A stretch of DNA of 64,000 nucleotides from a virus. Taxonomy: Duplodnaviria > Caudoviricetes. Each line of letters begins with the position of its first letter. The stretch's first letter is position 1. This document shows positions 8,939 to 49,924 of the stretch, piece by piece. The notes under the pieces were generated by a model, which saw only the letters and a list, made by a program, of their open reading frames with translations, was not told the origin of the DNA and made no database searches. Made by a program: the position numbers and the translations under genes. Where the stretch lies: IMG/VR virus record IMGVR_UViG_3300006922_000005; one strand, written 5' to 3'.

Positions 8939-9598
8939 CTATAGTTCTTGTACTAACGGAAAGATTTTAGCAATAACTTTGGCACAAGCATGTGCAATAT
9001 CCATATGTTCTTTTTGTGTGCCGTTGGCACCACGCAACTCAATATAGTGAACCCAACTACGTAAACTACCATTCATATATAATGTAGTTTTTGTAATACC
9101 TTCGGGTAATACTTTACGTGCTTGTTCTTTTGCAATACCTTTTTTGATTGCCCAATCGTATTCTTTTTTGGCTAGTACTGCAATACGTCTTTGTGCATGT
9201 TCCCAATCAAGTTGTAGTTTTGCATCATCAACATCAATAGAATTTTGTCTGTTCTTTGGATCTTGTAATCGTGCTTCTGAGTATTCGAACATATCGCCTT
9301 GATCTTCAGGATTAGCATAACGCTGACTAAACTCTTGGAAAGCAAAACTTCTATGTCTTACAATTTGGTGTGCAATATCACGTGTAGTTTGAATTTCTAA
9401 ACAAGCACTTACCATTTCTAAAGGTGACCAATGTGCATGTTTAATTAAGTACTTGATAAGTTTTTCGTTAGTTTCTTTATTCATTTGATTGCTTGGGTTA
9501 CTTACCCTAGCACAAAAGGCAATTAGATCTTGTACATTATCTAAATCATTTTTAAAATCTTGTGTTGGTTGTGAATAACTTACTAGGTTAACTTTCAT
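8939..9598 (-). CDS. thyX: FAD-dependent thymidylate synthase
   Basis: RHRx7S motif (RHRSFAFQEFSQRY), HWSPLE, KEQARKVLP, LRSWVHYIELR. Confidence 0.97.
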   Translation of the reverse strand: MKVNLVSYSQPTQDFKNDLDNVQDLIAFCARVSNPSNQMNKETNEKLIKYLIKHAHWSPLEMVSACLEIQTTRDIAHQIVRHRSFAFQEFSQRYANPEDQGDMFEYSEARLQDPKNRQNSIDVDDAKLQLDWEHAQRRIAVLAKKEYDWAIKKGIAKEQARKVLPEGITKTTLYMNGSLRSWVHYIELRGANGTQKEHMDIAHACAKVIAKIFPLVQEL

Positions 9599-17702: not shown

Positions 17703-18317
17703 TTATACAATATTAAAACTAACTGCAATTCTATCACGTTCATGTCTTTGTTGTGCAACACTATGTTTTAAATAGCCAGGAAAGATGTTTAACATACTTG
17801 TACTAGGCTTAAAACTAACTTGTGTTGTATTAAAGTCATTGTATTCGTTTATTACATTACTAGCCCAATGATTGTCTGATATCGCAGGACTAAAAAAGTT
17901 TAATGAAGCATCATCTTCGTGTGCTTCTACATAATACACACCACTCCAAATACTAGGAGTATGTGTGTGCGTTTCGTGGTAACTGCCTTTTCTATTAATA
18001 GCAAACCACATGTCTTTAATAGTGAATTTATGTTCTTTTGTAAAACCCATAAAGTCGTTAAGGTTTCTAATATTGTCAGATAAAAAATTTACAAAAGGTT
18101 TCATTTCATCATATTCTATTAATTGTTTGTCTAATACTTTATTATAACTGGTATAGTAGTGATCTGTCAAGTTAAAAGATGTATTATCCATAGGAAATTT
18201 CTTTTCAATTTGATAAAACAGATGTTTCATATCCAAATTGAACTTGTTTCCTTCGTTCCAAACTTTACGTGCTAGAACATTAGGAAACAAACCTACAATT
18301 TCCCCTTGTTGGTCCAT
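17703..18317 (-). CDS. 2OG-Fe(II) oxygenase (TIGR02466-like)
   Basis: WFAIN...HETHTH...WSGVYY, FPGYLKHSV, RIAVSFN. Confidence 0.85.
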   Translation of the reverse strand: MDQQGEIVGLFPNVLARKVWNEGNKFNLDMKHLFYQIEKKFPMDNTSFNLTDHYYTSYNKVLDKQLIEYDEMKPFVNFLSDNIRNLNDFMGFTKEHKFTIKDMWFAINRKGSYHETHTHTPSIWSGVYYVEAHEDDASLNFFSPAISDNHWASNVINEYNDFNTTQVSFKPSTSMLNIFPGYLKHSVAQQRHERDRIAVSFNIV

Positions 18318-18704: not shown

Positions 18705-19025
18705 TTACATGTGTCTCCTTATTTTATCTAGTTTATCTTCCGGCTTTTCAGGTTTTTCACTTATACCGTCTATGTCCTCATACTTAATATTACTATCAGG
18801 AGCAATAGTTTGTGTGACAACATCTTTGTTTTCTTTATTAAGTTTATCTTTTAAAAAAACAAATGTCTCTATTATAGAGTAAACTACAAAAAAAGTAATA
18901 GTTAACACTAGTAAAATAAATGTATGCAGAAGTTTAGACAATCCAATGAATAAATCTGTTTTACTCCATTCGACTGTTTTGTCTTCTGCGTTAAACCAAA
19001 TAATTTTTAATCTGTCTTTAATCAT
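18705..19025 (-). CDS. Hypothetical membrane protein
   Basis: One long hydrophobic segment; ATGA overlap with queE. Confidence 0.6.
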   Translation of the reverse strand: MIKDRLKIIWFNAEDKTVEWSKTDLFIGLSKLLHTFILLVLTITFFVVYSIIETFVFLKDKLNKENKDVVTQTIAPDSNIKYEDIDGISEKPEKPEDKLDKIRRHM

Positions 19026-19918
19026 GTTCCTATAGCATTGCCGAACAAGTATACATGTACTCTTGCCGCCACGTTATAACCTCTTTTAAATGCCTTTTCT
19101 GCTACCTTACCTGCACCAGAAGTTTGTTCTTCTTCCCTTGCACCTGTAGGCATAATCCATACTGGCCAATCAACACCTGCATCTCTAAACTTTGCAACTG
19201 CTTCTTCCATTTCGTTCCATTCTCTATCTTTATCACCTACAACAAATTTAAGTTGTCCTTTACTACTTACCTTTGCATATTCTGCAACTATTTCAGGCTT
19301 AATTGCTTTCTCAGTCTTTTCACCTGATACTGTAAATAATTTAGGACTACAACTAAAAAATATTTCTGTATCAATACTGTTTGCCCATTCAATAAATTCA
19401 GGACGTAATTTTTGTGTACCATTTGTTTCAAATGTCATGCTACCGGGCAAATTGTCTTGTCTTTTTAATTCGTTATATATTCCTACTACTGCTTGTTGTC
19501 CTGTTATCATTAAAGGTTCACCACCTGTAAAACACAGATGTTGCCGAGTGTTACTTACAGGATGTAAAAACTTTCCTTCTGGGTTACTATCATTCTTTAT
19601 ACAATCTACAATTTTATTAGCAAGTGTACTAGGTGTTTCATACCCCATTAGTTTCTTAAACTTCTTTGCCCAAGTGTAACTACTATCACAACCTTTTTCC
19701 CACACAGGGAGATCTTCAACACGTTTGACACTGTCTACATCAAAGTCTTCAAACGGTAATTCATATGTATTAGGATTAGTAGGATCTAATTGTCCAAATC
19801 CGTTACATTGTAAATTACACAAAAAGAATCTTATCCAAGCAGTAGGAACACCTGTATAATGTCCTTCTCCTTGAATACTATAGAATATTTCAGAGTAATA
19901 ATACTTTTTCTCAGTCAT
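19022..19918 (-). CDS. queE: 7-carboxy-7-deazaguanine synthase (radical SAM), start at 19918
   Basis: YSEIFYSIQGEG..TG.P..WIRF..CNLQC...CDSSY.W, FTGGEP, FETNG, SCSPKL, R.HVYL.GN. AGAGG RBS before MTEKK. Confidence 0.9.
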   Translation of the reverse strand: MTEKKYYYSEIFYSIQGEGHYTGVPTAWIRFFLCNLQCNGFGQLDPTNPNTYELPFEDFDVDSVKRVEDLPVWEKGCDSSYTWAKKFKKLMGYETPSTLANKIVDCIKNDSNPEGKFLHPVSNTRQHLCFTGGEPLMITGQQAVVGIYNELKRQDNLPGSMTFETNGTQKLRPEFIEWANSIDTEIFFSCSPKLFTVSGEKTEKAIKPEIVAEYAKVSSKGQLKFVVGDKDREWNEMEEAVAKFRDAGVDWPVWIMPTGAREEEQTSGAGKVAEKAFKRGYNVAARVHVYLFGNAIGT

Positions 19919-19939
19919 TTGTTTAACCTCTTTCATATA

Positions 19940-19968
19940 ATTATAGTGTGTATTTAGGTTTTTGTCAA
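19940..19968 (-). promoter_or_regulatory. Sigma70 promoter with embedded late-promoter core
   Basis: TTGACA-17-TATAAT; CTAAATA inside the spacer. Confidence 0.75.
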
Positions 19969-20384
19969 CCGTTAATAACATCTTCTATATCCATTTGACT
20001 ATTATCTTTTTTGGAATACTTCTGTTTTTCCGGAATAACACCACGAATTCCGCCTGCTGGATCAATCATATCTCCATCTCTACGAAAAATTAAATGTACA
20101 TGTGGATACATGCAAGTTTGTCCTGCACTCTTACCCATATTAATGCCTACATTATACCCTGTAATGTTGTTGTTACTTGATTTAATATTATCATTGCCCA
20201 TTGAATTAGCAAACTTAAAACATTTTAAAATTGCTTCTTCTGTGTTTACTTTGGGTACTACTAGTGTATGTCCTTCAGTAACAGGATAGATATCATTGTA
20301 GACAACAAACTCACGTGTGTCAATTTCAACGTTAGTCCAAGGTGCTCTACCTTCTGCTTGTGCGTTTTCTAAAGTATCAGTCAT
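19965..20384 (-). CDS. HIT-family hydrolase
   Basis: DIYPVTEGHTLVVPK, YNVGINMG..AGQT..YPHVHLI. Confidence 0.9.
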   Translation of the reverse strand: MTDTLENAQAEGRAPWTNVEIDTREFVVYNDIYPVTEGHTLVVPKVNTEEAILKCFKFANSMGNDNIKSSNNNITGYNVGINMGKSAGQTCMYPHVHLIFRRDGDMIDPAGGIRGVIPEKQKYSKKDNSQMDIEDVING

Positions 20385-21121
20385 TAAAACTCCTGTGTCC
20401 ATACTGCGGCAGTATATCCTTTGCCGTTAGTATCACCGCCACAGTTGTCTAGTTCTTCGCCGTCATAGTAAACTCCTGATACAGTATCTTCACCGTTGGG
20501 CAGTTCATATGATTGTATTCTTAATTTTGTAGGATCAAAGTCACCTATAGTCTCTACTATTCCTTCAAAAAATGTGCCCTTCTCGATTGATAGCATTTGG
20601 ACGATGTGTGTTCCTTTTTCTGGGTACGAATCGTCTTGGGGTTCCATAATTTCAATTTCATAATTAGTGTCTTCACTAATTTTATTAGTCCATTCATTTA
20701 AATCTTCTCCCTCGATAACCTCTCTAATATGTTGTGCAGAATAATCAGCACTGCTAACTTCGTCTACAGTAAGGTAAGCACTGTCTACTGAAACATTGTT
20801 AATATGTTCAAATTCAGTTGGCATTTCAAACCAACTACTACGCCACGAGTTTCCATCTGAGCCTTCACTCATTAAAAAGTCTGCACTTGGCGGAACTTCG
20901 TCAATATTATCAAAATCAAATTCACCTTCTTCAGCATTAAGTGCATAATTACACAAATCACTATCACCGTGTTCTTCTACAATAGGCTTCCAAAAATCAT
21001 ACTGTTCTTGAGTTAATGTTCCATACACATGTTCGCCACCGTATCCGTTAAGTATGATACGATAAAATCTAGGACCTTTAATAGTTTCTAGTGTGTGTTC
21101 TTTTTCTTGTAGCGTTGCCAA
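20384..21121 (-). CDS. Acidic hypothetical protein
   Basis: Long ORF, GAGGA RBS, stop/start overlap. Confidence 0.7.
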   Translation of the reverse strand: MATLQEKEHTLETIKGPRFYRIILNGYGGEHVYGTLTQEQYDFWKPIVEEHGDSDLCNYALNAEEGEFDFDNIDEVPPSADFLMSEGSDGNSWRSSWFEMPTEFEHINNVSVDSAYLTVDEVSSADYSAQHIREVIEGEDLNEWTNKISEDTNYEIEIMEPQDDSYPEKGTHIVQMLSIEKGTFFEGIVETIGDFDPTKLRIQSYELPNGEDTVSGVYYDGEELDNCGGDTNGKGYTAAVWTQEF

Positions 21122-21125
21122 CGTT

Positions 21126-21326
21126 TTATTCCTCGCTGATCTTAAACATAGGATCTACTGTCATACTATCGTGCCAGTCTGTTTGATCCAAGTTAAATTT
21201 ACGTGATGTTGTTTCTTTACGCAACATTCCATCTTTAATACGATATGTAATTAATTCTTGTTTAATTACTCCTGTAGGTTCAGTTTGAAATGCACTTACA
21301 AGTGGTCCGTCAAATTTCTCATTCAT
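21126..21326 (-). CDS. Hypothetical protein
   Basis: Stop/start overlap with clpP. Confidence 0.6.
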   Translation of the reverse strand: MNEKFDGPLVSAFQTEPTGVIKQELITYRIKDGMLRKETTSRKFNLDQTDWHDSMTVDPMFKISEE

Positions 21327-21883
21327 TAGTATAACTCCTCTATTTTATCACATATTTTTAATTTCTTGGCTTCAGTAGCACTTAACCAAACGTCTTGTGG
21401 CGGAAGTAAAATTTCTTTAATTTTAGCCTCTGTCATACCAAGACATTTTTTGTAATGATCTATCATACGTTGTGTGCTTAATTCAAATTCTTTTACACGA
21501 GCATATAACTCATGTTCTTTTCCTTTACTACCCCAACTGTATTGATGTGAAAGGATTGCAGTATTAGGAGTAAGAATACGTTTACCTTTTTTCCCTGCAA
21601 TAAAAATTAAGAACCCACAACTTGCAATAAGTCCTAGTCCTACTGTTTTAATAGGAATATTACTTGCTTTCATAGTATCAATTAATGCAAAGGCGGCATG
21701 AACATCACCACCTGGTGAATTTATAATAATTGTTAATTGTGGTAATGGATTATCGCTTAGGTTATGATTCATTATCCACTTAATTGCTTCTCGACAAGTT
21801 GCATGATTAATTTGATCCATTAAAACATAGATACCGTTTGATTCAATATTTTGTGGTTGTGCTGGTTGTTTTTCTTTAGCCAT
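21326..21883 (-). CDS. clpP: ClpP-family serine protease (start 21883)
   Basis: INSPGG, GLIASCG (Ser), ILSHQ (His), QDVWLSATEA (Asp). AGGAG RBS. Confidence 0.9.
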   Translation of the reverse strand: MAKEKQPAQPQNIESNGIYVLMDQINHATCREAIKWIMNHNLSDNPLPQLTIIINSPGGDVHAAFALIDTMKASNIPIKTVGLGLIASCGFLIFIAGKKGKRILTPNTAILSHQYSWGSKGKEHELYARVKEFELSTQRMIDHYKKCLGMTEAKIKEILLPPQDVWLSATEAKKLKICDKIEELY

Positions 21884-22449
21884 TAGTATTCTCCTACGTT
21901 TTCCCAAGGATATACTAACCAAACATCCTCTTCTGCTTTGTTAACTTCATGACAGTAATAAGATACTTGATCAAACTCACTTGCTAAATTTTCTGTAAGT
22001 GTAGCAAACTTAACGTTGTCTCCCCAAATTTGGTTCCATAAAGGACTGTCTGGTAAACAACAATTTTGCCAATCATTTTTAATCCAATTAAATGTTGCAC
22101 CTGTATCATTAATATCATCTACAATAAGAATTTTTCTTTCTTGTTCGGGGTTATTTTTAAATTGTCCCATTTCAGCATTGTACGAACCTTCGTCGTCATA
22201 GCCATATGCATCACTAGCCATCCAAGTCATGCTATCGCCAGTCTTTCCTGATTCGCCATCACGTAAACTTACTTTAAATGATTCGCAACGTATGCCTGTC
22301 ATGTTACTAATAATAGTAGCAGGTACGTTACCGCCTCTTGTAATTCCTACAATGTAATCAGGTTTCCAATTTTCTTTGTACATTTGGTTTACAATGCTAA
22401 CACACATTTTTTCTATGTCTGACCAACTGTAATAATGTTTTTTAATCAT
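21883..22449 (-). CDS. Purine phosphoribosyltransferase (Gpt/Hpt-like type I PRTase)
   Basis: IVGITRGG, PRPP motif ILIVDDINDTGATF, WLVYPWE. Confidence 0.88.
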   Translation of the reverse strand: MIKKHYYSWSDIEKMCVSIVNQMYKENWKPDYIVGITRGGNVPATIISNMTGIRCESFKVSLRDGESGKTGDSMTWMASDAYGYDDEGSYNAEMGQFKNNPEQERKILIVDDINDTGATFNWIKNDWQNCCLPDSPLWNQIWGDNVKFATLTENLASEFDQVSYYCHEVNKAEEDVWLVYPWENVGEY

Positions 22450-22451
22450 GT

Positions 22452-22604
22452 TTAATCCTTGTTTATAATATCAGGAGTAATAGTGTCTACTGTGTTAACT
22501 ACTGTTTTCCCTGCGTAAATTGCCGTTGATGTTGCTACATCGACTACTGCTACAGTTGTAGAACAACCCGAACATAGTAAAATAATAGCAAATAATTTAT
22601 GCAT
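22452..22604 (-). CDS. Small lipoprotein (50 aa; not in the ORF track)
   Basis: MHKLFAIILLCSGCSTTVAVVD: signal peptide with lipobox ending in C. Confidence 0.65.
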   Translation of the reverse strand: MHKLFAIILLCSGCSTTVAVVDVATSTAIYAGKTVVNTVDTITPDIINKD

Positions 22605-22893
22605 TAGGATTGATACCTGCCACATCAGTTACATTTGCCCATCTAAAACTACGCCAACCTTTAGCATTAATATCCCATACTATTTGTGTTTCTTCACTAA
22701 TAGAACGGACTTTCTTTTGACTAGCAGTATCATCTTTAGTTGCCGGAGGAATAACACCTTCTTCAAGTGTACATGTCATTACTCTTTTGTCACCGTTTAT
22801 TTTTGTAAATGTTACAATAACTTCACCTTGTTTAAGTTTTGTTATTGTTGACTCTTTTAATTCTTCATATGTTTCCATGTTAACCTCGTTCAT
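22597..22893 (-). CDS. WYL_2/DUF2693-like SH3-fold phage protein
   Basis: VTFTK.NGDKRVM.CTL...VWD....GWRSFR; alternative start 22878. Confidence 0.75.
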   Translation of the reverse strand: MNEVNMETYEELKESTITKLKQGEVIVTFTKINGDKRVMTCTLEEGVIPPATKDDTASQKKVRSISEETQIVWDINAKGWRSFRWANVTDVAGINPNA

Positions 22894-23356
22894 TTAAATA
22901 TTCCTCATTATGAACCCATCTGTATCCAGTATGTTTTACCCAACGCATAAAGCCCCATTCTTTTTGTTTCTTTCCCATAAAGAATATGCTTGTGCATGGT
23001 AGTTCGTTTCCGTCTTTGTCTTTAGCAAGTTCTAACCAATGTAAGTCACTTGCCTTTCTAAATCTAATATGTCCAGGACCACGCCAATGTGCAGTTGCAC
23101 CACATACGTGTCCTTCTTTTGCAAATACTGGAACATACTCCCAATACCCGCCTTTTAAAATAATAGCACCCCAACTCCATGGATGATCATGTAACACAGG
23201 TTCATCACTTACAAGAACTTTATGAAGTGTAATATTAAATGGAAAGTTTTTTCTTTCTTTTAAAAATAGATAATATCTAATCAAATAAGGTACTTTTCCT
23301 GAGCGATCAGTAATCACTCTACGTCTACCTAGTTTGTCCATTATCTTACTAAACAT
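22880..23356 (-). CDS. Cupin-like metal-binding protein
   Basis: LHK...D.P.LHDHPW..., GGYWEY, distal LHWLEL. Confidence 0.65.
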   Translation of the reverse strand: MFSKIMDKLGRRRVITDRSGKVPYLIRYYLFLKERKNFPFNITLHKVLVSDEPVLHDHPWSWGAIILKGGYWEYVPVFAKEGHVCGATAHWRGPGHIRFRKASDLHWLELAKDKDGNELPCTSIFFMGKKQKEWGFMRWVKHTGYRWVHNEEYLNERG

Positions 23357-23629
23357 TTATTCTTCCATTTCTTCATTAACTTTACACATATTATACACGT
23401 TTATGAACTGTTTGTAAAGAGATTTTGCAGTCGGATACTTTTCTAATAAGTCCAAATCAATCATCTCATAATTATCAAATCTATCTTCCCAACTACTTGT
23501 ATCTATTGTAATATTATCTACGTCCATTCCGGAAATCGACATTGACGTATTGTAAGTATCACTAACAGAATACGTAACGGAACCTGCATTACTATTATCT
23601 AATGTAAATGTGTAATCATCGTCATTCAT
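23357..23629 (-). CDS. Hypothetical protein
   Basis: GGAG RBS; packed in operon. Confidence 0.55.
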   Translation of the reverse strand: MNDDDYTFTLDNSNAGSVTYSVSDTYNTSMSISGMDVDNITIDTSSWEDRFDNYEMIDLDLLEKYPTAKSLYKQFINVYNMCKVNEEMEE

Positions 23630-23648
23630 TTAAGAATCTCCAATATAG

Positions 23649-23673
23649 AAAAGTGGGGGATTTCTCCCCCACT
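23649..23673 (-). terminator. Hairpin terminator after yhhQ
   Basis: AGTGGGGGA-GAAA-TCCCCCACT, short T tract. Confidence 0.7.
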
Positions 23674-23685
23674 ATACTAAAACAA

Positions 23686-24345
23686 TTAACTTGCTGACTT
23701 ATTATCAGTAAGTTTACCGTTAAGGTATTTTAACAAAATACCGTATGCTGGCAGGAATACTACCAAGCCTACGACAATCTTAGTCAGTGTGTTGTTCTGT
23801 GCAACAATGTGCCAGTTAGCACCAATCCAAGACATGTTACCTTCTGCGTCCAACGATCCTGCAAACGCCACATAAAAGAATGAATATGTGTCAATTATAT
23901 TTGCAACAATAGTTGAAAGTGCAGGAGCCGCCCACCATGCGTTTGAGCGTTCTCTAATTGCTTGGAAAACATATACGTCAAGCATTGTACCAATTGCGTA
24001 TGCGGTACCACTTGCTAAACCTACTCTGTATGCGTGTGGATCATCTAGTGCCATTAGCACAAGTACAGATGCTATAATAGCAGGAATAATTGCCATTGCT
24101 ACAACGGCTCTTCCTGCTTCTTTACCAACCATACGTACTGTTAGGTCAGTTGCTACAACAACGATCGGAAATGTAAAAGCCGCCGCCGCTAGTGGAAATG
24201 ATCCAAACAAGGGCAATTCAGCACCTGGAAATAAATCAAATCTAATCGTAACTAGATAGTTTGACACAGCAATAACAAGCGTGTGTAAAATAACTAGTTT
24301 AGTTACAAGTGCCCTATCGACACCGTGTAAAAGTTTTGTGAACAT
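23686..24345 (-). CDS. yhhQ: Queuosine-precursor (preQ0/preQ1) transporter, YhhQ/VUT family
   Basis: HTLVIAVSNYLV, AFTFP.VV.ATDLTVR..G...R, YA.GTMLDVYVF, N.IDT..F; about six TM segments. Confidence 0.88.
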   Translation of the reverse strand: MFTKLLHGVDRALVTKLVILHTLVIAVSNYLVTIRFDLFPGAELPLFGSFPLAAAAFTFPIVVVATDLTVRMVGKEAGRAVVAMAIIPAIIASVLVLMALDDPHAYRVGLASGTAYAIGTMLDVYVFQAIRERSNAWWAAPALSTIVANIIDTYSFFYVAFAGSLDAEGNMSWIGANWHIVAQNNTLTKIVVGLVVFLPAYGILLKYLNGKLTDNKSAS

Positions 24346-24378
24346 TCGTTCCTCCTTCTATTTTGGTGCCTTGCACCT

Positions 24379-24400
24379 TTTAACACAATATTGTGTTAAA
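24379..24400. repeat. Perfect 22-bp palindrome between folE and yhhQ
   Basis: TTTAACACAATATTGTGTTAAA is its own reverse complement. Confidence 0.8.
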
Positions 24401-24411
24401 CTTTTTATTGA

Positions 24412-25101
24412 TTACGAACCTGCCGCAAATTGCTGTTGCAGTTTAACGTTATCGATAAATTCTTTTTTAGTTGCAGGATCATCTTTAAACGCACCACGTA
24501 ATACTGTTGTTTGTGTTAATGAACTATGGGCTCTAATACCCCTGTTCTCACAACAACCGTGTGTTGCTTGTACATATACACCTACGTGTTCACTACCTGT
24601 TTGTTCTTGTATTGCATTAGCAATCATAACATTCAGTTCTTCTTGTAGTGTACCTCTTGTAGCACACCATTGTGCAATACGAGTGTACTTACTTAAACCT
24701 AATAGTTTAGGTCCTGCAATGATACCAATGTATGCTACACCTTTTACTGTCTGGTGATGATGCGAACATAAACTTGTAAGTTCACTTCGCACTACTAACA
24801 TACCTTCATAACCGCCTTCAATATAGTTAGGAAATGCACTTGGATTAGGCATTGGATCATAACGTCCTGCCATAATCTCATTAATGTACATCTTAGCCAT
24901 ACGTCTTGCAGTATCCATACTGTTAGGATCTGTTTTAGTATCAATTAATAATTTTTGTAATACATTTTCAAAAGCAGGTACTGCTTCATCAATTAACTGT
25001 TGCTTATCACCTTCTTCAATGTAATCAGCAATGTTGTCGTTAGCCCAATATCTTACGCCTTGTTGTTCTAACTTTGCTTTTATTTCTTCGCTTTTACTCA
25101 T
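24412..25101 (-). CDS. folE: GTP cyclohydrolase I
   Basis: TARRMAKMY, SLCSHH, GLSK..RI, LQEEL, H.C...RG. Confidence 0.95.
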   Translation of the reverse strand: MSKSEEIKAKLEQQGVRYWANDNIADYIEEGDKQQLIDEAVPAFENVLQKLLIDTKTDPNSMDTARRMAKMYINEIMAGRYDPMPNPSAFPNYIEGGYEGMLVVRSELTSLCSHHHQTVKGVAYIGIIAGPKLLGLSKYTRIAQWCATRGTLQEELNVMIANAIQEQTGSEHVGVYVQATHGCCENRGIRAHSSLTQTTVLRGAFKDDPATKKEFIDNVKLQQQFAAGS

Positions 25102-25139
25102 TTATTTCTCCGATGTTTAGGCAGTGGATTGCCTCTTTT

Positions 25140-25168
25140 ATTATAACTTCTCAAGTAAGTTTTTACAA
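25140..25168 (-). promoter_or_regulatory. Sigma70-type promoter for folE, followed by a 5' hairpin at 25119-25134
   Basis: TTGTAA-17-TATAAT; AGGCA-ATCCAC-TGCCT stem-loop just after the predicted start site. Confidence 0.6.
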
Positions 25169-26238
25169 CTAAAATAGTTGTCATTTAATTGAGTAGCAAG
25201 TTTATTTAGGTCAATAAGGTAGTTGTCATAATTTTCCATATAATCAATTATACGTGCAACTATCTCATCTTTGTGTTCTTTATACGAAACAAATGATTCT
25301 GTCCATTCGCTTGGGTATAAGAACTTGCCTGTATTGTCCATTTCAGTGTAACTTAAACGATCTGGAACCATAGGCAAGGTGCCAACCAAAGCACCTTCGT
25401 ACCAACTAATACCTAGTGTTTCTTGTAGGTTAGCACTAAAGACAAGTTTTGCTTCTCCTAGTGCGTTGTAGTATTCTTGTTTTGAATAATTTTTATCCAT
25501 ACAAATTTCAAATTCATATTGTGTAAGTGTGTCTTTTAAATCTAAAAATATCTCAGGTTGTTTTTCTGGAGCAACTCTGTGCGGAAACAAAATTAAATTA
25601 CGTTTTGTCATACCTTTAAATGCTTCTAATTCTTTGCGTACATATTCCATAGGCCAACCGCAACGTACAATCTTTCCGTTATTGAATCTATTGTTGTATG
25701 CTTCGTTATACATGTCTGTAGGTTCGTTGTTGCCATCTAAAAGTAATTCATCAAAGAACAACTTTACATGGAAGTCTGTTGCAAAGTAATTATGATCATA
25801 ACTGTGAAAGAAACTTTTCTCTGCATGTCTTACCCACGGTGCATTATTAATAAGTCTACCTAAAAAGTCTTGTGGGTCGTATGAGCCAGCATGCCAAAGT
25901 GCATGTGTTATAACTTTAATGCCAAGTAGTTCACTCATATACTTAATATTAGTGATACCAGGATGCCAAGCATCTGTAAAGATAATATGATCACCTTCGT
26001 GTACTTCGCCTGTTGTAAATGCTCTACTAATTTGTTCTATTTGATTTGCTTTGTAAATATTAGTACCACCAAAGTTCAAAAAAGCACCTGGAGTTGTAGC
26101 ATTAGGAATATCTGTTGGACCTTCTACAACAAATACTTCGTGATTGTTCTTACGTAGTAATGCAGGAAAGAAAGTTTTCCATTGTTTAGTGTAGCGTGTT
26201 TCTACACTCTCTATATCTATTAACCATATTCTAGCCAT
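25141..26238 (-). CDS. GT-B glycosyltransferase, GTDC1/QTMAN (DUF3524 + GT4)-like
   Basis: EX7E motif ETLGISWYE; ILFPHRVAPEKQPEIF and SKQEYYNAL..A.LV.S motifs. Confidence 0.8.
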   Translation of the reverse strand: MARIWLIDIESVETRYTKQWKTFFPALLRKNNHEVFVVEGPTDIPNATTPGAFLNFGGTNIYKANQIEQISRAFTTGEVHEGDHIIFTDAWHPGITNIKYMSELLGIKVITHALWHAGSYDPQDFLGRLINNAPWVRHAEKSFFHSYDHNYFATDFHVKLFFDELLLDGNNEPTDMYNEAYNNRFNNGKIVRCGWPMEYVRKELEAFKGMTKRNLILFPHRVAPEKQPEIFLDLKDTLTQYEFEICMDKNYSKQEYYNALGEAKLVFSANLQETLGISWYEGALVGTLPMVPDRLSYTEMDNTGKFLYPSEWTESFVSYKEHKDEIVARIIDYMENYDNYLIDLNKLATQLNDNYFSCKNLLEKL

Positions 26239-26458
26239 TTGTTAATCCTAATATTGTTAGTATTCTTAAATCGTTATATTCAAATATTATAGCATCATCC
26301 ATACTATCTGTATAGCCTTGATCTTGCCAAATAAAATCACGACCGTAAACATAACCATGATTGCCTAGTGTATTACTCACTTTGGCGACTGCGTCTACGG
26401 TCGTATAATTTGCATTTAATGCACCACCTTCTACTGAATTTCCAAATTTATCAGTCAA
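26231..26458 (-). CDS. Hypothetical protein (TTG start at 26458)
   Basis: GAGG RBS after stop of 26469..26690; avoids the 180-nt overlap of the tracked 139-aa ORF. Confidence 0.55.
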   Translation of the reverse strand: MTDKFGNSVEGGALNANYTTVDAVAKVSNTLGNHGYVYGRDFIWQDQGYTDSMDDAIIFEYNDLRILTILGLTNG

Positions 26459-26468
26459 GTATGGACCT

Positions 26469-26690
26469 CTATCGCTTTGGTCCTCGGTTCTTAAAGTTAC
26501 GATTCTTGTGAACACGTTGTTTTGCTTTCCGTGGATTGTTACGACCTTCGTATGCCCTCCACTCTCTTGTTTCCCTTTTGTAAAGGAACTTTTCGTTAAA
26601 TTTAAACCCTTCAAATCGACAAAAGTCGCGGAAGGAATCGAGATCATCAAAGATTTTTACAATCTCTGGACGTTGTGCAAGGTAAGACAA
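26469..26690 (-). CDS. Small basic hypothetical protein
   Basis: GGAGA RBS; RPEIVKIFDDLDSFRDFCRFE. Confidence 0.7.
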   Translation of the reverse strand: MSYLAQRPEIVKIFDDLDSFRDFCRFEGFKFNEKFLYKRETREWRAYEGRNNPRKAKQRVHKNRNFKNRGPKR

Positions 26691-26704
26691 TGTTATCTCC
26701 TTTT

Positions 26705-27160
26705 TTACTTTGCATAGTACTCAATGTGTGCGCCGTTTTCTCCATCTTCACTTACGTCAATATGGACTTCACGACCTGGGTGTTTTGCGATAATTTGTTC
26801 ATATAAATCATCACTCATCATTTCACAACTCTTATAATCTAGTTCAAGTGTTTTTTCTGCGTAAAGTTTTTCTAACCAACGTTTAAATTGAATAAACTCT
26901 ATATCTCTATCGTTGTGTGTTACAGTAATACCTACTTTAAAATGAAATATGTGTCTGTGGGGATATCCCAAAAAACTAACATCATATTCATCACCTGTAG
27001 CAAGTGCTGGATCGTCCAGTGCCGCAGGATATTTGTGAATACCTTCTTTTCTAAAGGTTACCCATATCATTCTTTTTGCGTTTTCCATAATTACCTTTTC
27101 GTTTTCTTCTCTTGTTCTTCTTAACATATAATCATAATAAGGTTCTCTTTGATTATTCAT
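26705..27160 (-). CDS. dpdL: T-fold QueD paralog with LxxxHRHxF motif (DpdL-type, predicted CDG decarboxylase); alternative start 27088
   Basis: FRKEGIHKYP, LGYPHRHIFHF, DRDIEF, KSCEMM, VSEDGENGA; lacks the QueD CxxxHGH. Confidence 0.65.
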   Translation of the reverse strand: MNNQREPYYDYMLRRTREENEKVIMENAKRMIWVTFRKEGIHKYPAALDDPALATGDEYDVSFLGYPHRHIFHFKVGITVTHNDRDIEFIQFKRWLEKLYAEKTLELDYKSCEMMSDDLYEQIIAKHPGREVHIDVSEDGENGAHIEYYAK

Positions 27161-27162
27161 TT

Positions 27163-27191
27163 ATAATACATTCTTTCTATACAGTTGTCAA
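27163..27191 (-). promoter_or_regulatory. Sigma70-type promoter overlapping the aminotransferase stop
   Basis: TTGACA-17-TATTAT; -10 only 2 nt from ATG 27160, which favours the 27088 start. Confidence 0.65.
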
Positions 27192-28435
27192 TTACTTTTC
27201 CAGTTATTTTGGTCCCATATTTTACCATTATTAACAAGGGTTACAAACTTTTGAAATGTGTGTTCAATGTAGTCTGCTTCTTGTTTATTTAGGTCGTAGA
27301 AACTCAAGAACCAAATTCTTGTGTGTTCTGAGTTCCATAATTTATGACTGTTTAAAAATGTTGATAACATTTTACATTGATCATTGTCATAATTGTTCAC
27401 AAAGTTACAGTAAAGAATACTGTTGCTGTGTGTTACTTCAAATGTATCTACTTGTTTTAGTATGTTTGCAATACGTTCAACAAACGGTACAACATCATTT
27501 ATTACTTTTGTACCAATATCTTCTTCAATACATTTGTTAATTGTTTCTATTGTTGCTCTAGCACCTGTATTTGATTGTGCCCTTGTATTACCTACTGCAA
27601 TAGGAAAGTTATCCCATAGGCTAGGATCAAATGCACTTATTGTATCGTGAATGTTTTTATGTAATACGGTAATAGCCAAAGTTCCAAACCCACCTGTAAG
27701 TGCTTTTCCAAAACAGATCATATCAGGGTTTAAGTTTTTATGTATACTATGTGAAAAATGTCCCATACGCCACATGCCTGTAAGTATTTCATCTACTATT
27801 AACAAGCAACCTGTTTGTTTTCTTGCAGTTTGTATTTTTTCTAATACTTCGTCACTTACTTCACTAATACCATTATACCAATTTACAGTATCTAACATAA
27901 TACCTGCAAGGGTATCTTTGTGTTTTGTAAACATAGCATCAAAGTTATCATCAAAGAAGTCTACAAAATCAATATGTGGCCAATTTCCTAAAATCCAATC
28001 TTGATCATCTGTCATTTGCCAACCAGTAATACTACCTGAATGAAAACTTCCTTTTCTTACAAGTACTGTACGTCTGCGAGATTGTTCTTTTTTAGTCCAA
28101 TATCTCCATGCAATCTTTAATGAATTGTCTACACTATCACTGCCCGTAAGTGCAGGTATAAATCCTGTGTATGTGTTAGGTAAAACTTTTTTAAGAGTAT
28201 CTTCTAGTTCATACCATACAGTACTTTTAGTTGTCCAATCATCGTTTGGAAACTGAAAACTTGTTTCTGCTACTTTGGCTTGTATTTCAGGCTGTGTAAA
28301 TCCAAATATATTACATCCTGTTCCGCCACTTAGGTCATACCATTGCTGATTTTCACCTACTAAGAAGTGTCCATTCATTTCTTTAACTTTAGGGTGTTCG
28401 TCTTTGGGCTGAGAAAAAGGGTGTATTAATTTCAT
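27188..28435 (-). CDS. PLP-dependent class-III aminotransferase
   Basis: YDLSGG, TGSDSVDNSLK, SFHSGS, LIVDEILTG..R.G, PDM...GKALTGG (catalytic Lys present). Confidence 0.88.
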   Translation of the reverse strand: MKLIHPFSQPKDEHPKVKEMNGHFLVGENQQWYDLSGGTGCNIFGFTQPEIQAKVAETSFQFPNDDWTTKSTVWYELEDTLKKVLPNTYTGFIPALTGSDSVDNSLKIAWRYWTKKEQSRRRTVLVRKGSFHSGSITGWQMTDDQDWILGNWPHIDFVDFFDDNFDAMFTKHKDTLAGIMLDTVNWYNGISEVSDEVLEKIQTARKQTGCLLIVDEILTGMWRMGHFSHSIHKNLNPDMICFGKALTGGFGTLAITVLHKNIHDTISAFDPSLWDNFPIAVGNTRAQSNTGARATIETINKCIEEDIGTKVINDVVPFVERIANILKQVDTFEVTHSNSILYCNFVNNYDNDQCKMLSTFLNSHKLWNSEHTRIWFLSFYDLNKQEADYIEHTFQKFVTLVNNGKIWDQNNWKSN

Positions 28436-28439
28436 TGCG

Positions 28440-28955
28440 TTACTCTACTGAATTATCATTTTCGTATTTAGACCAATCAGTAAACTTATCTCTTGGCTGT
28501 AAATCTCTAGCATAATGTACCCAAACACCTACGTTAGATGCTTTAAAGTCTTTATCATCAATCTTAATACAAGCATTATAATTTAAATGATCGATATACG
28601 GAAGTTTAACACTAATCATACTAATAAATTTATTATATTCGTTATATCCTGCTTCGATAACATATTCATGATATCTTACATCATAATCTAGTGTAACCAT
28701 ATAACTTTCTTTAAGTAACCCTTCTACAAGTTCGTCCCAAGCATGACTTGTACCGCCATCAATATTAAAACTTTGATTAGCACCTAAGTAAATATGATCT
28801 ACTGCATGTTTCTTTGCTTGTTTTAATACTTCTTGTAATGGTCTAGGCCCTACTACAAATAACGTGTGTTCTTCAAATGCTGGAGTTTTTTCTACTTCGT
28901 AACCTGTGAAGTAAACAACATCGTCCTTAACACCATCATCATAATCACGCTTCAC
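28440..28955 (-). CDS. Conserved hypothetical protein in deazaguanine operon
   Basis: FTGYEVEKT...TLFVVG...HIYLGANQSF, alternating beta/alpha pattern; co-transcribed with dpdA. Confidence 0.6.
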   Translation of the reverse strand: MKRDYDDGVKDDVVYFTGYEVEKTPAFEEHTLFVVGPRPLQEVLKQAKKHAVDHIYLGANQSFNIDGGTSHAWDELVEGLLKESYMVTLDYDVRYHEYVIEAGYNEYNKFISMISVKLPYIDHLNYNACIKIDDKDFKASNVGVWVHYARDLQPRDKFTDWSKYENDNSVE

Positions 28956-29160
28956 TTTGTGCCTCCAATGAAGTTATTTCTAAGTTAATTTTCCACATCT
29001 CGTCTTTAAGAGAAAGTTTTTGTTTCTTCATTTCTACTAAAAACTTTTCTTGTACTTTTTCTGCCTCTGCAACTTCAACTTTTTCATGTACTAGTTTATG
29101 TTTTGCAATAAGGCTTTGCAGTCTATTGTTTAACTTATCTATCTTTTCTACGTTAGTCAT
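28945..29160 (-). CDS. DUF465/YdcH-like coiled-coil protein (start 29160)
   Basis: L.AKH..VH...MKKQKL.LKDEM; GGAGG RBS. Confidence 0.65.
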   Translation of the reverse strand: MTNVEKIDKLNNRLQSLIAKHKLVHEKVEVAEAEKVQEKFLVEMKKQKLSLKDEMWKINLEITSLEAQSEA

Positions 29161-29161
29161 A

Positions 29162-30610
29162 TTATACCTCCTCGAATAGGTTTGTGTATTGTGTACTAGC
29201 ATTAACTGTCTTCTTACCAGTAGCACCTCTAGTTCCAATAATAGACATCCAAAACCTTGAAAATTCTTCTATTATCGCATTTGCTTCGTCTCTGTTTGAA
29301 GTTGCAAATATTGCTTCCACAACATCTTTAAAAAATAACCTGTCAAAGGACTCTTCGACAAGCATGTTTGGAATGATTCCATTGTCGTATTGTCTGTTTG
29401 CTTCTTGTACTGCATTGATATGACTCCATACATTATGACCCATTTGGATCGCATAAGAAAAACTATCCCATGATGTCTTTCCTTCTTTACCTATTTTATT
29501 TAGATCACCTGGAGCATAAATGCAAACATCTTTGGCTTTTAAGTTTTGTGTAAGTGGTGAATCTTTAAAACTTCCATGTTTACCTTCACGTACAAATGCT
29601 TGTGCAAAAGGCGTAGTATCTGTAGCAAGTGCTTTATCATCTATGCTAGGTACCATTCTGTATACCCATTTACTTCTATCTTGTGTTTCAAGTTCACAAT
29701 AAATTTGACCATTTGCTGTGGCTAAGAACGGACTAGCACAATCAAATGTAATCATAAAGTTTTCATTGTGATACTTGCGAACTGCTCTTTGTATATCTGT
29801 TAATAATGTTGCCCACTCTAATTTACTAGTACCCAAAAAGTGCATAACATCATGTTTGCCCTTTTCAAGTAATCCATCAAAGCGTAATGCAACTAAACGT
29901 TTTAATACTAGATGTACATCACACATGTTCTGTCCACCCATCGACCAACCATTAAAATGATTTTCATACTTTTTAGGATCACAGTAATCTTTCATTTGTT
30001 GATACCAATCTTCTGCATCAGCATGATTCTCGCCTTGTAATACATTTAAGAATTTACAAGCACCGCTTCTGTGTTTCATAAAGTAGTCGTTGTTAATACG
30101 TGTAGCATTAACGGCATCTTGATAGTTGTCAATACCTGTTGCTTTTGCACCTGCTGGTGAACGTGCTACCCAAGCCGGAATATCAAGTATCATACCATAG
30201 TCCATGTAAGCGTCCATCCACGCAAGTACTTGCTCACGTTTCTTTTGTGCTTTAGGACAATTAGGATCTTTCCAATCACCTTCCCACACACCTTTACCTA
30301 TCTGGAAACCACCTGAGTCACCTAACATCCAACTATTGTTACGATCTCTATCTCGTACCATATCTTCTTTAGGTGCATCTTTATTAATATCTAGTTCGGC
30401 ATGTCCTGCGGAATATAATGACCAATGATAGTTAAACAGTCCTTCTTTCTTGTTTAACCAATTCATACTTTCCATACTAGGATACGGAATACGACTCTTA
30501 TCAACGTATTCTTCTCTGCGTTGCTTACCTATAAAGGTAGCATAGAAACCACTCAACGCTGGTAAAAACGTTGCGTAGTCTTTTTGTTCTGTTGTTAAGT
30601 CCGTATTCAT
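29162..30610 (-). CDS. dpdA: 7-deazaguanine DNA transglycosylase (TGT fold, DpdA family, probably DpdA2-like)
   Basis: Catalytic DSGGFQ, MILD, LNVLQG, GWSMGG, HFLG, FDCASP, terminal HN. No CxCxxC zinc site of tRNA TGT. Directly downstream of polB and clamp. Confidence 0.8.
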   Translation of the reverse strand: MNTDLTTEQKDYATFLPALSGFYATFIGKQRREEYVDKSRIPYPSMESMNWLNKKEGLFNYHWSLYSAGHAELDINKDAPKEDMVRDRDRNNSWMLGDSGGFQIGKGVWEGDWKDPNCPKAQKKREQVLAWMDAYMDYGMILDIPAWVARSPAGAKATGIDNYQDAVNATRINNDYFMKHRSGACKFLNVLQGENHADAEDWYQQMKDYCDPKKYENHFNGWSMGGQNMCDVHLVLKRLVALRFDGLLEKGKHDVMHFLGTSKLEWATLLTDIQRAVRKYHNENFMITFDCASPFLATANGQIYCELETQDRSKWVYRMVPSIDDKALATDTTPFAQAFVREGKHGSFKDSPLTQNLKAKDVCIYAPGDLNKIGKEGKTSWDSFSYAIQMGHNVWSHINAVQEANRQYDNGIIPNMLVEESFDRLFFKDVVEAIFATSNRDEANAIIEEFSRFWMSIIGTRGATGKKTVNASTQYTNLFEEV

Positions 30611-30618
30611 TATATCTC

Positions 30619-31350
30619 CTATTTAGATTGTGCTGGCAAAATGTATTCATAAGTTGCCAAACCACTGTCTACTTGAATTTGCATAGCACCTTGATCTGAG
30701 AACTTCATTACTTTGTCGCCATCTAAACTTAAAATAGCAAGTGTTTGTTGTACTGGCCATGCCCATTCATTTTTAAGTGAACCTGTTACACCTGTAGCAA
30801 AAATAAATTCACCTGCGTGTGTACTAGCATCACCAAACTTGAACTTGATGTCTGTACCATCTGTAAGTACAGTAAACACAGTTTCTTCTGCGTTTGCAGT
30901 TGCCTGCATTTTAAATCTTTGTACACTTGCCATAGTAGGTGAAACTTCTACGTCCCATGCCGCACCTTTAAACTTAACAGTCTTAAGTTTTTCATTAATG
31001 ATTTCTGCGTTCATAAAACGATAATCATTTTTAAAGTCACCTGTTTTGTTTTCAAAGTGTATACCAGTTGGAATCTGTACACCGTTTCTATCTTGACGTA
31101 CAACATCAATAGTTGCTTCGTCTTTATATTCTGGACACTTCAAATGAATGTCTAGTTTGTTTAAGTTTGGCATACCAAACGTACCCTTCATCTCTACTTG
31201 GGCGTTTTTAGTATTTGCCTGCATGATCACAGAGCGATCCTCTGCCATGCTATCGATACCTGTTTGTGCATCATCACCATTGACCTTAACAATGTTAAGA
31301 AAGCCAAGTGCATGTGTATGTGCAACAATGTCTTGTAAAATGTCTTTCAT
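30619..31350 (-). CDS. Sliding clamp (gp45/PCNA-like)
   Basis: 243 aa two-domain clamp-like pattern ending YEYILPA; directly after the polymerase. Confidence 0.65.
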   Translation of the reverse strand: MKDILQDIVAHTHALGFLNIVKVNGDDAQTGIDSMAEDRSVIMQANTKNAQVEMKGTFGMPNLNKLDIHLKCPEYKDEATIDVVRQDRNGVQIPTGIHFENKTGDFKNDYRFMNAEIINEKLKTVKFKGAAWDVEVSPTMASVQRFKMQATANAEETVFTVLTDGTDIKFKFGDASTHAGEFIFATGVTGSLKNEWAWPVQQTLAILSLDGDKVMKFSDQGAMQIQVDSGLATYEYILPAQSK

Positions 31351-31374: not shown

Positions 31375-31403
31375 ATTATATTTAGAAAATCATTCAAAGT
31401 CAA
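31375..31403 (-). promoter_or_regulatory. Sigma70 promoter with overlapping late core
   Basis: TTGACT-17-TATAAT; CTAAATA overlaps the -10. Confidence 0.7.
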
Positions 31404-46418: not shown

Positions 46419-47130
46419 TTAGTTCCGCCTCTGTTATATATTCTTGTGTGCTTCTAATTGTATCGCCTAAATACATTTGTAACAACAGCAACATTTGTGA
46501 ATCTGTTGAGTACAAAAATCTTCCATCGGAATAGTAGCAATTTTCAATTAATTTTTTTGATGCTTTTAATTCGCCTGCATAGTTTTCTACCCATTCTTCA
46601 AACCCTGCTTGACGTACTAGTTTTCCTCTTAGATGTATTTTAAACCTGTATTTGTCATATGGTAAACGTTCACAGATTACATTGTTTGGGTTATTAGTAA
46701 AGTAATCTTCTTGCTTTTTGTTTTTAGGCCAAATCATTTCGTATAAATGATCTTTAAATGTGCCACAGAAGTTTTCCCATACTATTTTATCGTTTGTAAA
46801 GAAGCCAAGTTTATCACCTTCATTACGAATCTTATGTTCTTCGTGAATGTAATATTCTTGAATCCAATTGTATAACTTATACAAGGTAAATCTATTTTCC
46901 CATATTTCTTTATGTGATCTATGCCTTCCATCGTTTATACCTAATGATAAAGAACTGTATGCATAGTTTAAGTCGCCTATGCCTTTCCATTGTTCCATCC
47001 GTTCTGCATTAAACAGTGATTCAATATCACTACGTTTAGCATATCGAATAAAACTAGTTCTTGGTGTCTTTACAACTGCTTTGTACTTGTACTTTTTATA
47101 AAAAAGTTTAGTCGTGTGCGAGGTCTTCAA
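46408..47130 (-). CDS. Hypothetical protein (apparent internal duplication of the LFY/LPY.KY.YK motif)
   Basis: KLFYKKYKYK and RLPYDKYRFK begin two halves. Confidence 0.6.
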   Translation of the reverse strand: MKTSHTTKLFYKKYKYKAVVKTPRTSFIRYAKRSDIESLFNAERMEQWKGIGDLNYAYSSLSLGINDGRHRSHKEIWENRFTLYKLYNWIQEYYIHEEHKIRNEGDKLGFFTNDKIVWENFCGTFKDHLYEMIWPKNKKQEDYFTNNPNNVICERLPYDKYRFKIHLRGKLVRQAGFEEWVENYAGELKASKKLIENCYYSDGRFLYSTDSQMLLLLQMYLGDTIRSTQEYITEAELNEQ

Positions 47131-49896: not shown

Positions 49897-49924
49897 ACTA
49901 TACTTCCTTTTTAGTTTTTGTCAA
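49897..49924 (-). promoter_or_regulatory. Sigma70-type promoter, possibly giving leaderless def mRNA
   Basis: TTGACA-16-TATAGT, then 7 nt to ATG. Confidence 0.5.

Follow-up and report, generated by a model that had tools for sequence, protein, structure and literature searches.

A DpdL-type deazaguanine DNA-modification module with a probable new DpdA clade and a conserved glycosyltransferase in a marine jumbo phage

The tailed phage record IMGVR_UViG_3300006922_000005 of IMG/VR was analysed over a stretch of 64,000 nucleotides (hereafter the window), in which the genes between positions 19022 and 30610 form a DpdL-type deazaguanine DNA-modification system with a probable new clade of DpdA transglycosylase and, as a conserved partner, a glycosyltransferase (GT) of the GT4 family. 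The analysis establishes gene identities, protein folds, conservation of motifs and co-occurrence of genes. An initial annotation of the window had proposed a deazaguanine module devoid of the known tailoring genes, with a final base that may differ from the deazaguanines described in phages. The module itself and the absence of the known tailoring genes from the window stand, while two premises had to be corrected, as a queD-type gene exists outside the window and the additional genes of the module do not form one set. That the final base may be unlike those described now rests mainly on the GT, and further glycosylation of the DpdL-type product is put forward here as a real possibility that falls just short of probable.

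All sizeable open reading frames (ORFs) between 13.9 and 36 kb of the window are encoded on the minus strand, with little space between the genes. Read in the sense of transcription, the family B DNA polymerase gene polB is followed by the genes of a sliding-clamp-like protein, a DpdA-like protein of 482 aa, a DUF465 ORF, a 171-aa protein (unk171), an aminotransferase, DpdL, a 139-aa ORF and the GT. After the GT come FolE, the YhhQ/Vut_1 membrane protein, a 90-aa ORF, a cupin-like protein, WYL_2, a phosphoribosyltransferase (PRTase), ClpP, two unknown ORFs, a HIT-family protein and QueE (Table 1). The genes named in the initial annotation, from queE, yhhQ and folE to the DpdL-type T-fold and DpdA-type genes and the extra ones, are all in place on this strand. 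The phage is an abundant marine jumbo phage whose replication block is related to those of the Pseudomonas jumbo phage PA5oct (Wroclawvirus) and the Sinorhizobium phage Phosso: PolB shares 48-53% identity with the polymerases of both, and the clamp-like protein is 36% identical to the protein encoded after polB in PA5oct and 34% identical to the annotated clamp of Phosso. A megablast search of the region against cultured phages gave no match.

A long TGT-fold enzyme that probably forms a separate DpdA clade

The DpdA-like protein was not recognized by sequence: taken singly, it has no match in Pfam, PHROGs, NCBIfam or the PDB sequences, a profile of 38 sequences of its family found nothing among the PDB sequences, and the Pfam TGT (PF01702) and DpdA (PF23859) models match neither the window protein nor any of the 38 family members. 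Its TGT-type identity is settled by its fold, a TIM barrel of the TGT kind. An AlphaFold2 (AF2) model built on diverse relatives reached a pLDDT of 91, and all 50 top matches of this model in a Foldseek search of the PDB are structures of the TGT of Z. mobilis (E-values of 1.4e-7 to 1.8e-6, TM by target of ~0.5). In a viral structure library, the model retrieved phage proteins named TGT or queuine tRNA-ribosyltransferase, and also the protein of Vibrio phage nt-1 at an E-value of 1e-10. Among the 38 sequences, which share 27-92% identity, no variation is seen at D98, S99, G100 and G101 (GDSGGFQ), H257 and G260 (HFLG) or D290 (FDC), and almost none at D143 (LDIP). By motif likeness, rather than by a residue-level structural alignment, D98, D143 and D290 look like the three aspartates of the TGT catalytic site (D102, D156 and D280), and we take them to be their counterparts.

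The family of this protein is large (970 clusters at 50% identity, with E-values up to 1e-3). Gene conservation was compared in the best 80 of ~600 IMG/VR stretches encoding a close relative of the transglycosylase, and this gene is the most conserved of the block, with 79-100% identity across the 80 loci. Among cultured phages, a tblastn search at 1e-5 connects the protein with PA5oct-like phages (35% identity to EST35_0316 of PA5oct), Phosso and a single Vibrio phage only; phiST and the Campylobacter phages were not retrieved. Profile alignment with hhalign gave a probability of 96% to the DpdA of Acidovorax phage ACP17 (E-value of 3.5e-9 over 183 columns), which groups with the type found in the phages nt-1, VH7D and KVP40, and a probability of only 55% to the DpdA3 of phiST (CGPG_00065). 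Membership of the DpdA3 subfamily was rejected on this low probability, on the absence of phiST and Campylobacter phages from the tblastn results and on the position of phiST DpdA3 among the structural matches in the viral library (rank 28, E-value of 4e-3). The window transglycosylase is thus read here as a separate, new clade of DpdA, whose nearest group is DpdA2, as a sister group of it and not as a clear member.

Genes for the synthesis of the deazaguanine

QueE, the candidate 7-carboxy-7-deazaguanine (CDG) synthase, retains the radical-SAM cysteines C55, C59 and C98 (CX3CX38C, followed by DSSY), which are conserved in 30 sequences. A promoter-like site matching 12 of 12 positions, at 19968-19940, falls inside the long queE ORF, and the true start of the gene probably lies near 19918. 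It was also observed that the place of QueE is occupied by two types of the enzyme in related phages, one at 60% identity or more (12 loci) and one at 35-40% (24 loci).

DpdL is a paralogue of QueD in which, according to the published signature, LxxxHRHxF replaces the CxxxHGH of QueD; the decarboxylation of CDG is a prediction of the authors who described it (PMC10516641). In the window protein, H68, H70, H73, H82 and E88 are conserved in 50 sequences, and its identity reaches 73% with the DpdL of Phosso, 58% with that of PA5oct, 53% with that of ACP17 and 31% with that of phiST.

The initial annotation also reported the absence of queD, queC, queF, arcS and gat-queC. This is true of the 64-kb window, in which none of QueC, QueD, QueF, ArcS or Gat-QueC was recognizable by direct family scans, by tblastn with the QueD-like and QueC-like ORFs of relatives or in the Pfam lists of identical-protein contigs covering ~1-22, 32-53 and 51-64 kb. 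A wider search for queC, queD and queF was made through related IMG/VR records and three exact-protein walks past the end of the window. Through these walks, a PF01242 PTPS (QueD-type) gene scoring 52.8 bits against a cut-off of 22.4 was found at the window-equivalent position of ~80.2-80.6 kb, that is ~16 kb past the right end of the window and ~50 kb upstream of dpdA, in the same phage population. At the corresponding position in two related IMG/VR records (G004 and G005), 48-56 kb upstream of dpdA, a PF01242 PTPS gene is likewise found. The missing queD is therefore an effect of the window, since the PTPS gene exists past its right end. The activity of this protein as a synthase of 6-carboxy-tetrahydropterin (CPH4) is only presumed, because its motif reads CxxxHGY and not CxxxHGH. 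As the related IMG/VR contigs measure 146-182 kb and are rated 39-50% complete, the genome is estimated at ~350 kb, the size of a jumbo phage.

For QueC, the same search returned weak, sub-threshold ORFs only. These are two divergent PP-loop ORFs, each found in a single record (L085:1000-1710 in G004 and L084:997-1905 in G005), one of which has an SGGxDS motif and a zinc-type CGQCWWCEER motif. They were rejected as core genes, being present in single related records only.

The distant PTPS gene is the first of a group located at L105:6215-10023 (window-equivalent ~76.8-80.6 kb), in which it is followed by five genes on the same strand, encoding a Cupin_2 protein, a KdsA-like DAHP_synth_1 protein, a KdsB/NeuA-like CTP_transf_3 protein, an unknown protein of 292 aa and a PMM-type HAD protein. 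By their families, these genes look like a phage-borne pathway for a CMP-ulosonic acid (Kdo-like) sugar. They were considered as a donor pathway for the GT and set aside, PA5oct, ACP17, Phosso, phiST and RHph_I1_18 being without PF00793 and PF02348. A second ClpP-like gene also lies near the distant queD.

A GT4 glycosyltransferase that accompanies DpdL

The GT is a GT-B enzyme whose AF2 model, compared in VIA, matches sucrose-phosphate synthase (SPS), BshA, MshA and mannosyltransferases with Z of 22-24 (300-316 residues at 3.2-3.6 Å). Its EX7E motif (E273-x7-E281) does not vary in sets of 33 and of 51 homologues, and for this reason the enzyme is predicted to be catalytically intact. The Pfam family Glycos_transf_1 does not match the window protein and matches 10 of 33 relatives weakly (best E-value of 1e-4), while its cut-off of 26.4 bits is passed by the homologues of Xanthomonas phage X1 (45.5), BCSR5 (42) and Synechococcus phage BUCT-ZZ01 (26.5).

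Full-length homologues of the GT (at least 81% coverage) occur in only 18 of 50,697 cultured-phage records, and all 18 also carry DpdL within 0-4 kb. These records belong to the PA5oct-like, Phosso, ACP17, X1/BUDD, BCSR5 and BUCT-ZZ01 lineages, and the gene is adjacent to dpdL or dpdA in seven phage lineages. The gene order varies between lineages (GT-DpdL, DpdL-GT or GT-DpdA-DpdL), as does the partner transglycosylase, some lineages having the PA5oct type and others the DpdA2 type. Since every GT record carries DpdL, with either type of DpdA, it is DpdL that the GT accompanies, rather than DpdA. No GT match came from the QueC-bearing DpdA2 phages (nt-1 and the Stenotrophomonas phages), and the five partial GT4 matches from other phages have an unrelated, amino-sugar setting.

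T-even phage GTs glucosylate 5-hydroxymethylcytosine (hmC) in DNA, and the mannosyltransferase QTMAN/GTDC1 acts on queuosine, itself a 7-deazaguanine, in tRNA. The window GT shares with them the idea of a GT-B enzyme decorating a modified base, and no specific relationship was found: T4 AGT and BGT do not appear in the top-ranking matches of the GT, and Drosophila QTMAN, at rank 4 of the Swiss-Prot fold matches (E-value of 9e-10), is tied with generic GT4 enzymes. The QTMAN_N domain (PF12038) gave no match in 33 family members at E-values up to 1 nor in six cultured homologues at E-values up to 0.1. A specific kinship with QTMAN was rejected at the level of Pfam.

Comparison with known deazaguanine systems

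The closest described pathway is that of Cellulophaga phage phiST, which makes 2′-deoxy-7-deazaguanine (dDG) with FolE, QueD, QueE, DpdL and DpdA3 (Cui, Hutinet et al., NAR 2023; PMC10516641). Both phages encode FolE, QueE, a QueD-type PTPS, a DpdL with the LxxxHRHxF signature and an enzyme of the TGT superfamily, both lack QueC, QueF and ArcS, and both have the module beside a polymerase gene. In contrast with the window, phiST has a DpdA3 of 259 aa in place of the 482-aa long form and lacks the GT, PRTase, unk171, cupin and HIT genes; queD is 50 kb away in the marine phage, and the two DpdL proteins share 31% identity.

The order polB, clamp, DpdA, GT, DpdL, PRTase and QueE is syntenic in PA5oct, where the DpdA is 35%, the GT 40%, the DpdL 58% and the QueE 37% identical to that of the window. 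Phosso shares the clamp, DpdL (73%), GT (47%), FolE (57%) and QueE. In both phages these genes are annotated as hypothetical, and the marine phage differs from them in adding unk171, cupin and HIT and, in the window strain, the aminotransferase and YhhQ. The DNA of PA5oct resists restriction enzymes with G in their site and is targeted by nucleases that sense hypermodified DNA (PMC12191111). The authors infer a modified G, and ran liquid chromatography-mass spectrometry only on other phages (PMC12191111).

In ACP17, X1 and BUCT-ZZ01, a GT-DpdL pair lies beside the transglycosylase together with FolE, QueD and QueE, and ACP17 also has a homologue of unk171. Their transglycosylase is of the DpdA2 type (the nt-1, VH7D and KVP40 group), a remote relative of the window enzyme. 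Expression of ACP17 DpdL and DpdA alone in E. coli yielded no dDG, and in the view of the authors further enzymes may be required (PMC10516641). Conserved partners, namely the GT and the unk171 homologue, were left out of this reconstitution, which offers a concrete reason for its failure.

Proposed pathway and nature of the modified base

In the proposed pathway, FolE would convert GTP into dihydroneopterin triphosphate (H2NTP), the QueD-type PTPS encoded ~50 kb upstream, outside the window, would make CPH4, and QueE would make CDG. All later chemical steps are predictions, as are the part given to the PRTase and the acceptor assigned to the GT. DpdL would remove or transform the C7 carboxyl group, and the long TGT-fold enzyme would swap guanine in the phage DNA for the deazapurine after replication. 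The PRTase would turn the released guanine into GMP, which would remove the competing substrate, pull the exchange forward, refill the GTP pool and feed FolE. Finally, the GT would add a sugar to the deazapurine, either as the free base before insertion or on the DNA, and the base of the virion would be a glycosylated 7-deazaguanine derivative rather than plain dDG. More tentatively, this reading may extend to at least seven lineages (the marine family, PA5oct, ACP17, Phosso, X1, BCSR5 and BUCT-ZZ01), which could share a sugar-bearing 7-deazaguanine made through the GT4 enzyme, with the PRTase driving complete replacement.

The GT implies DpdL but not the reverse, a pattern that fits an optional decoration step after DpdL. 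The main rival, somewhat less probable yet serious, is that the module makes plain dDG in the manner of phiST: FolE, QueD, QueE and DpdL would produce 7-deazaguanine, DpdA would insert it, and the GT would act on something other than the DNA base, such as a glycan of the host or the virion or a small metabolite, its linkage to the cluster being kept by the timing of expression or by descent. Several points count for this rival and against a sugar on the base. The full gene set of phiST is present once the distant QueD is counted. DpdL occurs without the GT in six lineages (phiST, RHph_I1_18, Ahp1, Bakedbeans, D479 and MA9V-3), among which RHph_I1_18 (56%), Ahp1, Bakedbeans and D479 have a DpdL close to that of the window, and it works without a GT in phiST, where dDG was measured. 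The GT and all of its homologues are acidic (isoelectric point, pI, of 5.3-6.2) and its best structural matches are small-molecule GT4 enzymes, so that a DNA acceptor is not indicated; the pI was discarded as a test between a DNA and a small-molecule acceptor, polB and DpdA being acidic too. The evidence across lineages amounts to seven lineages, some with a related replication block, and the linkage within one family reflects common descent. In the searchable literature, no nucleoside analysis of a GT-bearing phage was found, and no paper that connects deazaguanine clusters with a glycosyltransferase.

Chemically, the proposed glycosylated product is weakest at the sugar acceptor. Queuosine offers its cyclopentenediol, which is absent in the window system. 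At C7 of 7-deazaguanine, no hydroxyl or amine that could receive a sugar is obvious. Hence either DpdL does more than a simple decarboxylation, or the sugar would be placed at an unexpected position. Plain dDG, for its part, leaves unexplained why full-length homologues of the GT are found only in DpdL phages and always within the deazaguanine cluster, in varied orders and with different DpdA types, while partial GT4 matches elsewhere sit in an unrelated sugar context. The failure to obtain dDG from the DpdL and DpdA of ACP17 alone also argues against it.

The two other explanations are improbable. ToyH and TubE attach a deazapurine to phosphoribosyl pyrophosphate (PRPP) in the biosynthesis of toyocamycin and tubercidin, and the PRTase of the module could likewise join CDG or 7-deazaguanine to PRPP, a dNTP being then made and incorporated by the polymerase, with a minor or different role for the DpdA-like enzyme. 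Points for such a route are the constant presence of the PRTase in the marine module, its recurrence in PA5oct and BUCT-ZZ01, and the MazG and other nucleotide enzymes encoded in the window. Against it stand the TGT-fold enzyme, which keeps three catalytic-type aspartates, and the fact that no other gene of the block is as conserved; moreover, the ACP17, Phosso and X1 clusters have no PRTase, and the window PRTase is closest to ordinary 6-oxopurine salvage enzymes. In addition, a DpdA is present in every deazaguanine phage, for which a post-replicative exchange has been argued (PMC10516641).

Least probable of all is that the product is another small molecule, for example a glycosylated pterin, or that tRNA is modified rather than DNA. 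FolE, a T-fold enzyme and a GT4 enzyme form the skeleton of the cyanobacterial biopterin glucoside pathway, to which the FolE, PTPS-like T-fold and GT4 genes of the module correspond, but the pterin glucosyltransferase 5zes ranks only 46th among the fold matches of the GT, no better than dozens of other GT4 enzymes, and QueE and a TGT-fold exchange enzyme are fixed in a block directly behind polB and the clamp gene. Furthermore, it is the DNA of PA5oct itself that is G-modified (PMC12191111).

Fixed and accessory genes of the module

The presence of each gene was counted only in those of the 80 loci that hold both of its flanking genes. By this count, unk171 (70/70), DpdL (65/65), the GT (55/55) and the PRTase (41/41) are fixed, and HIT (34/36) and the cupin (49/55) are nearly so. 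The aminotransferase (13/70), YhhQ (6/55), the 139-aa ORF (8/65), WYL_2 (14/55), ClpP (9/41) and the DUF465 ORF (7/79) are accessory. The initial annotation had treated the GT, the aminotransferase, the unknown protein, the cupin and the PRTase as one interleaved set; all five are present, but they are not equivalent, the GT, unk171 and the PRTase being fixed, the cupin nearly fixed and the aminotransferase accessory. The aminotransferase, YhhQ, the 139-aa ORF, WYL_2 and ClpP are read here as passengers that vary between lineages.

The motifs HIYLGANxSF and KIDDxDFxxSNxGVW are invariant in unk171, a homologue of which is encoded directly upstream of the DpdA of ACP17 (HMM E-value of 1.7e-27). 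No match to unk171 was found in Pfam, PHROG, NCBIfam, the PDB profile search or the ESM Atlas, and hhalign comparisons with small proteins in a like position in X1, PA5oct and Phosso, the last of which is annotated "glycosylase", were negative. The cupin-like protein conserves H45, H56, H58, E73, H106 and E109; no counterpart of it was found at the loci of PA5oct, ACP17 and Phosso. In the PRTase, the PRPP motif is ILIVDDINDTGAT with an intact loop, and the best PDB matches are GpT-2 of S. solfataricus, a Pyrococcus purine phosphoribosyltransferase, HGPRT and XGPRT. Homologues of this protein are present in the PA5oct and BUCT-ZZ01 clusters.

The best PDB matches of the aminotransferase are ArgD and BioA, and its pyridoxal phosphate (PLP) lysine K244 (FGKALTGG) is conserved. 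Because it occurs in a minority of the related loci, it is taken as an insertion at the level of strains; none of the cultured relatives that were checked has it.

Table 1. Genes of the replication and modification block, with positions in the window and supporting matches
Feature	Position	Strand	Evidence or remark
Family B DNA polymerase (polB)	31390..34059	-	Pfam DNA_pol_B 4.3e-34; phrog_262 4.5e-193; heads the co-directional replication and modification block
Sliding-clamp-like protein	30619..31350	-	phrog_12062 1.3e-36
DpdA-like DNA guanine transglycosylase, TGT fold, long form (482 aa), PA5oct type	29162..30610	-	AF2 model
Small DUF465 ORF, accessory	28945..29238	-	Pfam DUF465 2e-5
unk171, 171-aa protein	28440..28955	-	Fixed dpdA partner in the marine family
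BioA-like class-III PLP aminotransferase, accessory	27188..28435	-	Pfam Aminotran_3 1.2e-28; TIGR00508 bioA 2.4e-35, below its cut-off
DpdL, QueD-paralogous T-fold protein, predicted CDG decarboxylase, 151 aa	26705..27160	-	LGYPHRHIF at residues 64-72
139-aa ORF of unknown function, accessory	26231..26650	-	No match in Pfam, PHROG, NCBIfam
GT-B/GT4 retaining-type glycosyltransferase, 365 aa	25141..26238	-	AF2 pLDDT 88
FolE, GTP cyclohydrolase I	24412..25101	-	Pfam GTP_cyclohydroI 7.8e-37; phrog_2197 1e-41
YhhQ/Vut_1 membrane protein (preQ0/preQ1 transporter family), accessory	23686..24345	-	Pfam Vut_1 2.2e-20
Cupin-like metal protein	22880..23356	-	phrog_4786 2.9e-28; weak Cupin_2 PDB matches
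6-oxopurine-type PRTase	21883..22449	-	Pfam Pribosyltran 1e-8
HIT-family protein	19965..20402	-	Pfam HIT 1e-7; H45, H101, H103 conserved
QueE-like radical-SAM enzyme (CDG synthase)	19022..19981	-	phrog_2076 6.2e-53; N-terminal matches to QueE TIGRFAMs

Transcription and neighbouring genes

The modification genes had been described as transcribed directly behind polB and the clamp gene. They are indeed co-directional and tightly packed with them, but promoter-like and terminator-like sites point to several units. Promoter-like sites with 11 or 12 of 12 positions matched precede polB (34174), the clamp gene (31403), dpdL (27191) and queE (19968), and a strong terminator-like hairpin lies directly 3′ of yhhQ (23652-23673, minus strand; 9-bp stem with 6 GC pairs and a T-run). 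Hence the modification block probably comprises several transcription units, as judged from these sites; overall, promoter-like sites are not enriched compared with shuffled sequences. In the interval 18.0-34.1 kb, 28-30 of 30 bins are covered by contigs of four marine metatranscriptome runs. Since RNA libraries can carry DNA, this coverage is only suggestive of expression.

Two genes for PF13759 2-oxoglutarate-Fe(II) oxygenases are present in the window, at 17703-18317 and 55338-55943, both on the minus strand. The first of these lies three genes downstream of queE and is poorly conserved there in relatives. The minus strand of the window also encodes a protein-quality-control set, made of ClpP (21326-21922), a ClpB-like AAA+ protein of 757 aa (47108-49381), DnaJ (49898-50758) and a peptide deformylase (49374-49889), as well as ThyX (8939-9598), a MazG-type pyrophosphatase (58511-58930) and a small CTP_transf_like nucleotidyltransferase (57320-57733). 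Just past the right end of the window, an ORF of 2195 aa is followed by ORFs of 996 and 750 aa (L101:3392-9979, window-equivalent ~67-74 kb), which probably encode virion or host-interaction proteins.

Distribution and significance

The stretch is present in the marine metagenomes of at least 12 studies. More than 8000 "glycosylase-unrelated" homologues of the GT were recorded, in addition to the ~600 IMG/VR stretches with a gene for a closely related transglycosylase. The module is thus very common in the ocean, and it is also found in cultured phages.

Should plain dDG be the product, what remains is a new DpdA clade and a widespread, already known modification. To our knowledge, the glycosylated bases described so far in phage DNA are all pyrimidines (hmC, 5-hydroxymethyluracil and their derivatives), and the phage deazaguanines described all carry small groups at C7. 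If the glycosylated product proposed here is real, a deazapurine bearing a sugar would add a new chemical class to the natural bases of DNA, which would matter for defence by restriction, CRISPR and glycosylases, for enzyme tools and, in marine viromes, for the bias of nanopore and short-read sequencing.

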